A stretch of DNA of 35,452 nt from a virus (taxonomy: Duplodnaviria; Heunggongvirae; Uroviricota; Caudoviricetes), in IMG/VR virus record IMGVR_UViG_2563366975_000004. One strand, given 5' to 3'. The position numbers and the translations under genes were made by a program. Positions 20,361 to 20,978 of this stretch are shown in pieces. The notes beneath the pieces are model-generated. The model searched no databases. It was not told the DNA's origin and saw only the letters and a program-made list of their open reading frames with translations. How positions within the stretch are numbered: position 1 is the stretch's first letter; each line of letters opens with the position of its first letter.

Positions 20361-20382
20361 TTGTCAGATGTGAGTAAACTGC

Positions 20383-20718
20383 TTATGGACTTTGTTGTTT
20401 TAGCCCATAAGGACATATTTGCAGAGTGCAACGGTTATTAAAGCATTCATTCAATACGTTATCTGTATTTGTAGGGCATTCCTGGCTGTTTTTGATTAAA
20501 TTCCATAATGTTTTATTGAATGGTACTACGTTGTAAATGGTTACAGGTAGCACTTTGTTATTGAGCATGATGCCTGTGTGAGTCAGTGTAAATATACTTT
20601 CAGGAGGTAAGAAAGCATCCGATTGATACCAGATTATTAATTTTATTTTACTCCATATGACTGAAAAAGATATTCCGCATGATGGCTGGATAACTGTATC
20701 AATCACAATCCACTTCAT
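20383..20718 (-). CDS. Hypothetical protein (111 aa) in AT-rich moron
   Basis: Only sizeable ORF in a strongly AT-rich block (about 20380..20960); opposite orientation to the late operon. Confidence 0.35.
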
Positions 20719-20978
20719 TTAGTTTCCTTGTTTATGCCTTGCTGGTGATGTTCTGAAAAGTATAAATGATATTTTTGATTGTAAACCATAGAGCAGAATT
20801 ATTTTTCTGATGTTGTTTATTGTTTATTTAAATGCAGGGTGGTTTATATCTCGTCTTGTAGTTTATCCATGCATATCTGCTTGATGATGAGGTTTTTATT
20901 TAAGGTATGGTTTTGTGTTTTTTCTGTATTACATGTCAGGTATTTTAAAGAATCATTTTTCAGATGGTGGAAAGAACC

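Follow-up and report, generated by a model that had tools for sequence, protein, structure and literature searches.

The window analysed here, a 35,452-nt stretch of a tailed phage genome (Caudoviricetes; IMG/VR record IMGVR_UViG_2563366975_000004), contains a conspicuously AT-rich block in which a single sizeable open reading frame is found on the minus strand (20383..20718). This ORF starts with ATG, encodes 111 amino acids followed by a stop codon, is intact, and is present in a single copy in the window. The original prediction of one reverse-oriented, cysteine-containing ORF of 111 amino acids was accurate, and the protein in fact contains five cysteines, at residues 14, 81, 92, 97 and 102. 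As shown below, the gene is iraL, which encodes an anti-adaptor for RssB belonging to the IraM family.

The difference in base composition between the block and its flanks, which had been noted from the sequence together with the suggestion of a sliding-window calculation, is evident from such a calculation. In 200-bp windows the GC content is 0.50-0.52 at 20100-20399, drops to 0.30-0.35 across 20400-20999 and rises to 0.56-0.58 from position 21000 onwards. The 604 bp from 20360 to 20963 have a GC content of 32.6%, compared to a mean of 50.7% (sd 5.1%) for 604-bp windows across the 35 kb (z = -3.55). The GC minimum of the entire 35 kb, the 604-bp window beginning at 20349, lies within this island, and values below 38% are reached in a single further place, near position 5800. 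While the block itself is thus real, its proposed extent of 20380-20960 was slightly too narrow. In a blastn comparison with the Stx2a phage L003, which lacks iraL, homology stops at 20347, at the terminator of an STnc100 sRNA gene, and restarts at 20978, at the start of an esterase gene; at the position of the block this phage has an unrelated 231-bp spacer with 49% GC. The AT-rich cassette therefore comprises positions 20348..20977 (630 bp, about 32% GC, no strand assigned) and extends from the terminator to the start codon of the esterase gene. Its low GC content probably reflects a foreign origin.

Both borders named in the original prediction, the terminator hairpin of a second repeat copy and the esterase gene, were recovered. 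The left border is a GC-rich hairpin with a 9-bp stem and a T-run (20327..20348, plus strand), located 34 nt past the iraL stop codon on the other strand. It belongs to the second of two genes for sRNAs of the STnc100/PasD family (Rfam RF02076), which is convergent with iraL (20169..20357, plus strand; 132.5 bits, gathering score 47). The iraL-sense RNA of this shared hairpin also folds into the 9-bp stem, without a U-tract. The first STnc100 copy is found at 19700-19893 (plus strand; 138 bits). The two copies are arranged as a spaced tandem with near-identical terminator hairpins, and only one copy is present in this slot in CFT073 and in the Stx phages examined. On the right, the 5' part of a gene of the sialate O-acetylesterase type with a DUF1737 domain (Pfam) and a SASA domain begins at 20979 (20979..21598, plus strand), which is equivalent to the start assigned by PGAP. 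This gene is split by a 2.4-kb IS21-like element of the ISEc10 family (21599-24004), with the junction at 21598/21599 as judged by alignment of the window with locus L001; the element encodes istA (22413-23912) and istB (21661-22416), both on the minus strand. A search of the complete E. coli genome collection gave no match to the junction between esterase gene and IS element. The antiterminator Q (Pfam Antiterm; 16782-17603) as well as the esterase, holin and lysozyme genes are all encoded on the plus strand, and iraL is therefore antisense to the late operon, as originally described. Two tRNA genes are located at 19277-19436 (plus strand), a tRNA-Met(CAT) according to ARAGORN (tRNA-Ile according to PGAP in relatives) and a tRNA-Arg(TCG); a third tRNA-Arg is found at this position in CFT073 and the Stx phages. 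Further Rfam matches in the window at 14577-14748, 4987-5074, 5099-5175 and 5415-5466 correspond to sok antitoxin RNA (accompanied by hokD in relatives), C4 antisense RNA, isrK and DicF.

The arrangement around the cassette is conserved among lambdoid prophages. The order Q - tRNA(s) - DUF3927 - STnc100 - iraL (minus strand) - esterase - holin is common to the window, to the 'potB island' lambdoid prophage of uropathogenic E. coli (UPEC) CFT073, to NCCP15648 and to four further sampled genomes, and it holds despite variation in the type of Q and regardless of whether the esterase gene is intact, frameshifted, truncated or deleted. NCCP15648 is 100% identical to the window over the iraL island, and its esterase gene is intact and annotated as a SASA family carbohydrate esterase. 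The window differs from the CFT073 prophage by a second STnc100 copy, by an upstream methylase gene and by the state of its esterase gene, which the IS element interrupts here and which is truncated in CFT073. The STnc100 gene, annotated in the sampled genomes merely as a pseudo-ORF, was found by Rfam scans directly before the iraL-type gene or the esterase gene in the CFT073, Stx2a-phage and Stx2c-prophage loci; the Stx2a phage shows the order tRNAs - stx2A - stx2B - STnc100 - esterase without iraL. A 2026 preprint describes sRNAs of the PasD/STnc100 family flanking the sialic-acid esterase gene, and neither iraL nor iraM is mentioned in its text. We considered that the STnc100 copies might represent StxS, the pR'-tR' sRNA that activates translation of rpoS. 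StxS is located directly 3' of Q, and STnc100 is located by the esterase gene, after stx2B in the Stx phage; this identification was rejected by position, and the idea of a combined RpoS module consisting of an sRNA and an anti-adaptor was therefore dropped.

The original prediction could not assign the ORF to any family, but the homology searches that it called for contradict this view. The protein matches the NCBIfam model NF007393 ('anti-adapter protein IraM') with 162.4 bits (cutoff 121; E = 3.5e-48), residues 1-110 being aligned to positions 1-113 of the 114-position profile, and residues 1-78 of IraM in the solved complex with RssB (PDB 8twd_A) align without gaps to residues 1-78 of the protein (E = 2.5e-32). 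Most importantly, 110 of 111 amino acids are identical to IraL of CFT073; the only difference is residue 71, a leucine here, as in K-12 IraM, and a phenylalanine in CFT073. At the DNA level 334 of 336 nucleotides (99.4%) agree over the full length of the coding region. Since a gene has been classed as iraL when its nucleotide sequence is at least 95% identical to the complete CFT073 coding region (PMC4045071), the gene in the window falls within this definition. In contrast, an identity of 95% to K-12 iraM is not reached, with about 71% at the nucleotide and 63% at the amino acid level; identity to a paralog found in Stx2c phages is 75% at the protein level. The genomic context is likewise that expected for the iraL group, namely a prophage or horizontal island unlike the surroundings of K-12 iraM, with the same lambdoid slot as in CFT073 and the four further genomes. 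By every criterion that could be applied at the sequence level, the ORF is thus a member of the iraL group within the IraM/IraL/RssC family and not a K-12-type iraM. The gene is already known: it was characterised in 2014 and has been discussed in reviews, it is routinely annotated by PGAP, and the matching gene in phage and RefSeq records already bears the name 'anti-adapter protein (IraM)'.

An ORF of this size in an AT-rich spacer could in principle have arisen by chance, in which case the block would be non-coding filler or a recombination scar. Short unannotated ORFs are indeed common, although AT-rich DNA yields them less readily, and no Pfam-A family was matched by the protein. This reading is refuted, however, and deserves practically no credence, in view of the strong NCBIfam and PDB matches, of a Salmonella homolog that retains invariant cysteine and proline positions at only 36% identity, and of the function published for the protein (PMC4045071). 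In addition, pairwise comparison of the three paralog classes (see below) by the Nei-Gojobori method gave dN/dS values of 0.10-0.17 with dS above 1, so that the protein evolves under purifying selection. A single-sequence AlphaFold2 prediction was poor (mean pLDDT 41, pTM 0.32), so that the fold was assigned by sequence similarity to 8twd.

The transcript of iraL can be placed precisely on the window. The 5' end of the CFT073 iraL mRNA determined by RACE, ACATCACCAGCAAGGCATAAACAAGGAAACCA (PMC4045071), matches the minus strand from 20751 to 20720 at 31 of 32 nt, with one substitution. A transcription start at 20751 leaves a 5' untranslated region at 20719..20751 (minus strand) that contains a Shine-Dalgarno-like AGGA within AGGAAAC (20728-20722, minus strand). 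At the corresponding distance from this start lies a sigma-70 promoter (20759..20785, minus strand) with the -10 hexamer TATACT at 20764-20759 (-13..-8) and the -35 hexamer TTTACA at 20785-20780 (-34..-29), separated by a 15-bp spacer; both hexamers are the same as in CFT073. If a 17-bp spacer is assumed, GGTTTA would be an alternative -35 element. The region from -100 to +33 is identical to CFT073 at 130 of 133 positions (97.7%), with substitutions at -28, -1 and +31, and the whole 260-bp intergenic region at 252 of 260. Assignment to the iraL group calls for the mapped start and for at least 96% identity to CFT073 over the promoter and regulatory sequences, and both are present in the window. 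In CFT073, the -100..+33 fragment restored RpoS stability when inserted at attTn7 (PMC4045071). The earlier description of the block as a moron is supported, and the cassette has a promoter of its own. We have little doubt that the block is an iraL cassette: a moron of lambdoid prophages, self-contained and devoted to lysogenic conversion.

The original prediction depended on expression of the ORF and on its conservation in related prophages, and it holds on both counts. The start of the iraL transcript has been mapped by 5'-RACE in CFT073 and is conserved here at 20751. Among 5426 complete E. coli genomes, 1446 contain the cassette with an identity of at least 90%, annotated as 'anti-adapter protein IraM', and for 1429 of these the match covers 80% or more of the cassette. 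The cassette is thus widely distributed, and its commonest allele type is the 604-bp type of the window, found in 796 genomes with at least 99% identity. The gene might nevertheless be a silent or decaying passenger, an intact ORF that is not expressed in a degraded prophage and has no effect on RpoS, for example through silencing by H-NS of the promoter region, which has only 29% GC, or through the substitutions close to the promoter. There are signs of decay nearby, as the adjoining esterase gene is split by the IS21-like element; the promoter region carries the three substitutions mentioned above, and the authors of the IraL study doubted the expression of some iraL copies with mutated promoters (PMC4045071). 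On the other hand, neither the two promoter hexamers nor the start site differ from the expressed CFT073 allele, the ORF contains neither frameshift nor stop codon in a family under purifying selection, and the allele type is the commonest one. A silent passenger is therefore unlikely, although H-NS might act on the AT-rich upstream region and silence it in this host.

How the expression of iraL is controlled, and whether the protein acts like its K-12 relative, can be approached by comparing the upstream regions. K-12 IraM (b1160), encoded beside the cryptic prophage e14 (PDB 8twd), has a similar length, a similarly low GC content (34%) and the invariant four C-terminal cysteines, but the upstream region and genomic context of its gene differ from those of iraL in the window; the search for similarity between the two upstream regions gave no significant match (best E = 0.7). 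[quoted passage not shown] The only upstream sequence conserved between the window and the Stx2c-phage paralog is a 40-bp block from -81 to -42 (20792-20832; 82.5% identity, E = 3e-8). This block contains a candidate PhoP-box-like direct repeat, TGTTTA-TTGTT-TATTTA (20814..20830, plus strand; -63..-79, in reverse orientation to iraL), with one mismatch to the pattern (T/G)GTTTA-N5-(T/G)GTTTA, and a similar repeat is present at the same position upstream of the Stx2c-phage paralog. Shuffling showed that a match of this quality is expected by chance in about 4-5% of sequences of the same composition; as this is marginal, we kept the repeat solely as a lead. No Fur box was detected upstream of iraL (with up to 6 mismatches to the 19-mer). 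IraL is elevated in a CFT073 fur mutant, an effect that the authors call indirect, alongside a stringent-response link proposed for IraP.

These observations bear on the possibility that the protein in the window acts as K-12 IraM does, in a PhoP-dependent manner upon Mg2+ starvation and by bridging both RssB domains, rather than constitutively in log phase. The PhoP-box-like repeat within the sole conserved upstream block would be consistent with this. The RssB-contact residues of IraM (clusters I-III as listed in the bioRxiv/JBC paper on the IraM-RssB complex) support the identification of the window protein as an RssB anti-adaptor, with 10 of 13 identical and the exceptions being T13S, H63N and I64V. 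All five residues of cluster I, three of four in cluster II (T13S) and two of four in cluster III (H63N, I64V) are retained, so that all four cluster II residues, which contact the C-terminal domain of RssB, are either kept or conservatively changed, which would also fit the K-12 mode. However, the upstream region shows no detectable similarity to that of K-12 iraM, the repeat is only marginally unexpected, and the near-identical CFT073 protein is made in log phase without stress, its binding in the two-hybrid assay being confined to the N-terminal RssB domain (PMC4045071). We thus consider a K-12 IraM-like mode of action very unlikely, and retain the mode described for CFT073 IraL as the most fitting model for the window copy.

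The protein contains a further feature that is shared across the family. Cysteines 81, 92, 97 and 102 and the flanking CP/CPxG residues are invariant among IraL, the O157 paralog, K-12 IraM and the 36%-identical Salmonella homolog. They are located in the C-terminal tail (residues 81-111; 20383-20478, minus strand), which was cut off in the structural study of the IraM-RssB complex and described there as less conserved and flexible. This Cys4 arrangement may be a metal-binding or redox motif.

A more sensitive search of the E. coli genomes revealed three classes of cassettes, the iraL type (at least 95% identity), an O157 type (about 78%) and the K-12 iraM type (about 71%). The closest known system remains iraL of CFT073 (formerly ycgW; Hryckowian et al. 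2014, mBio 5:e01043-14), with which the window shares the transcription start, the promoter hexamers and the prophage slot. The paralog of Stx2c phages and some Stx2a phages of O157:H7 (for example phages 2851 and 1717; WP_001303568.1) occupies the same slot in the same orientation, between STnc100 and the esterase gene, and its cassette, which is present in 219 of 5426 genomes, aligns to that of the window throughout with about 67% nucleotide identity. It differs in that it encodes 107 amino acids, lacks the QQSP tail, is located downstream of stx2AB and has a different promoter-proximal sequence. In the O157:H7 Stx2c prophage locus it is found at 5001-5324, directly after stx2cB and STnc100. 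We found no functional study of this paralog in the literature. In the published survey of iraL, a gene was counted only if it matched iraL or iraM with 95% identity or more, and the authors pointed out that iraL is missing from EHEC strains whose log-phase RpoS is high (PMC4045071). The Stx2c-phage paralog is a candidate explanation for the high log-phase RpoS of these iraL-less EHEC strains. iraL itself was over-represented among UPEC, prostatitis and Shigella isolates and under-represented among EHEC/STEC (PMC4045071), and no stx gene is present in the 35-kb window; the description of the element as an EHEC-type prophage in the original prediction is therefore not apt.

Outside E. coli, RssC of Salmonella has been reported as part of an iraL-iraM-rssC family; it is far more divergent and restricted to Salmonella. 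The 36%-identical Salmonella homolog, which is possibly not RssC itself, keeps the four C-terminal cysteines and several core residues. The core fold of IraM is reportedly similar to that of PmrD, and both proteins are small and bind the receiver domain of a response regulator. In contrast to the IraM family, which targets RssB, PmrD protects phospho-PmrA, and it has no detectable sequence relationship to the window protein. IraP and IraD also inhibit RssB and stabilise RpoS, but they are evolutionarily unrelated and differ in binding mode and inducing signal.

The function of IraL in CFT073 allows a mechanism to be proposed for the lysogen. IraL raises both the level and the half-life of RpoS in log phase, and deletion of iraL in CFT073 reduced the half-life of RpoS in log phase from about 5 min to about 2.5 min (PMC4045071). 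In the structure of the K-12 complex, IraM folds as a beta-barrel resembling PmrD; it spans the RssB domains and reshapes the linker. By analogy, the sigma-70 promoter in the window would start minus-strand transcription at 20751, and a 32-nt leader would precede the 111-residue IraL, a small IraM-family protein with a predicted PmrD-like beta-barrel. This protein would bind RssB and block the handover of sigma-S (RpoS) to ClpXP. With RssB blocked, RpoS would persist longer, accumulate during exponential growth and pre-arm the general stress response of the lysogen. RssB binding, RpoS stabilisation and the position of the transcription start are carried over here from CFT073 IraL on the basis of near-identity (110 of 111 amino acids), the differences from the tested allele being residue 71 and promoter positions -28, -1 and +31. 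To the extent that IraL alters host physiology in this way, its identification supports the earlier suggestion that the block carries host-interaction cargo.

In the lysogen, iraL is probably expressed independently of the late operon and of pR', as the upstream terminators converge with the cassette and insulate it; after induction, antiterminated late transcription would be expected to oppose iraL. The genes of the IraM family in question, iraL and the Stx2c paralog, are always found tail-to-tail with the STnc100 terminator, antisense to the late operon, in the stx slot. It is conceivable, though in our view rather doubtful, that this placement is itself regulatory, such that Q-antiterminated late transcription runs head-on into the cassette, shuts iraL off and thereby ties the stabilisation of RpoS to lysogeny. 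If so, further signal inputs, so far undescribed, could come from the -81..-42 block with its PhoP-box-like repeat and from the invariant C-terminal Cys4 motif.

The analysis turns an AT-rich moron of no recognised family into a named and experimentally characterised gene. It shows that the slot of lambdoid prophages occupied by stx and the esterase gene is a recurrent host of regulators of host stress physiology. A lysogen of the phage analysed here would thus have its RpoS general stress response boosted by a prophage gene, a trait linked to uropathogenic E. coli and Shigella.
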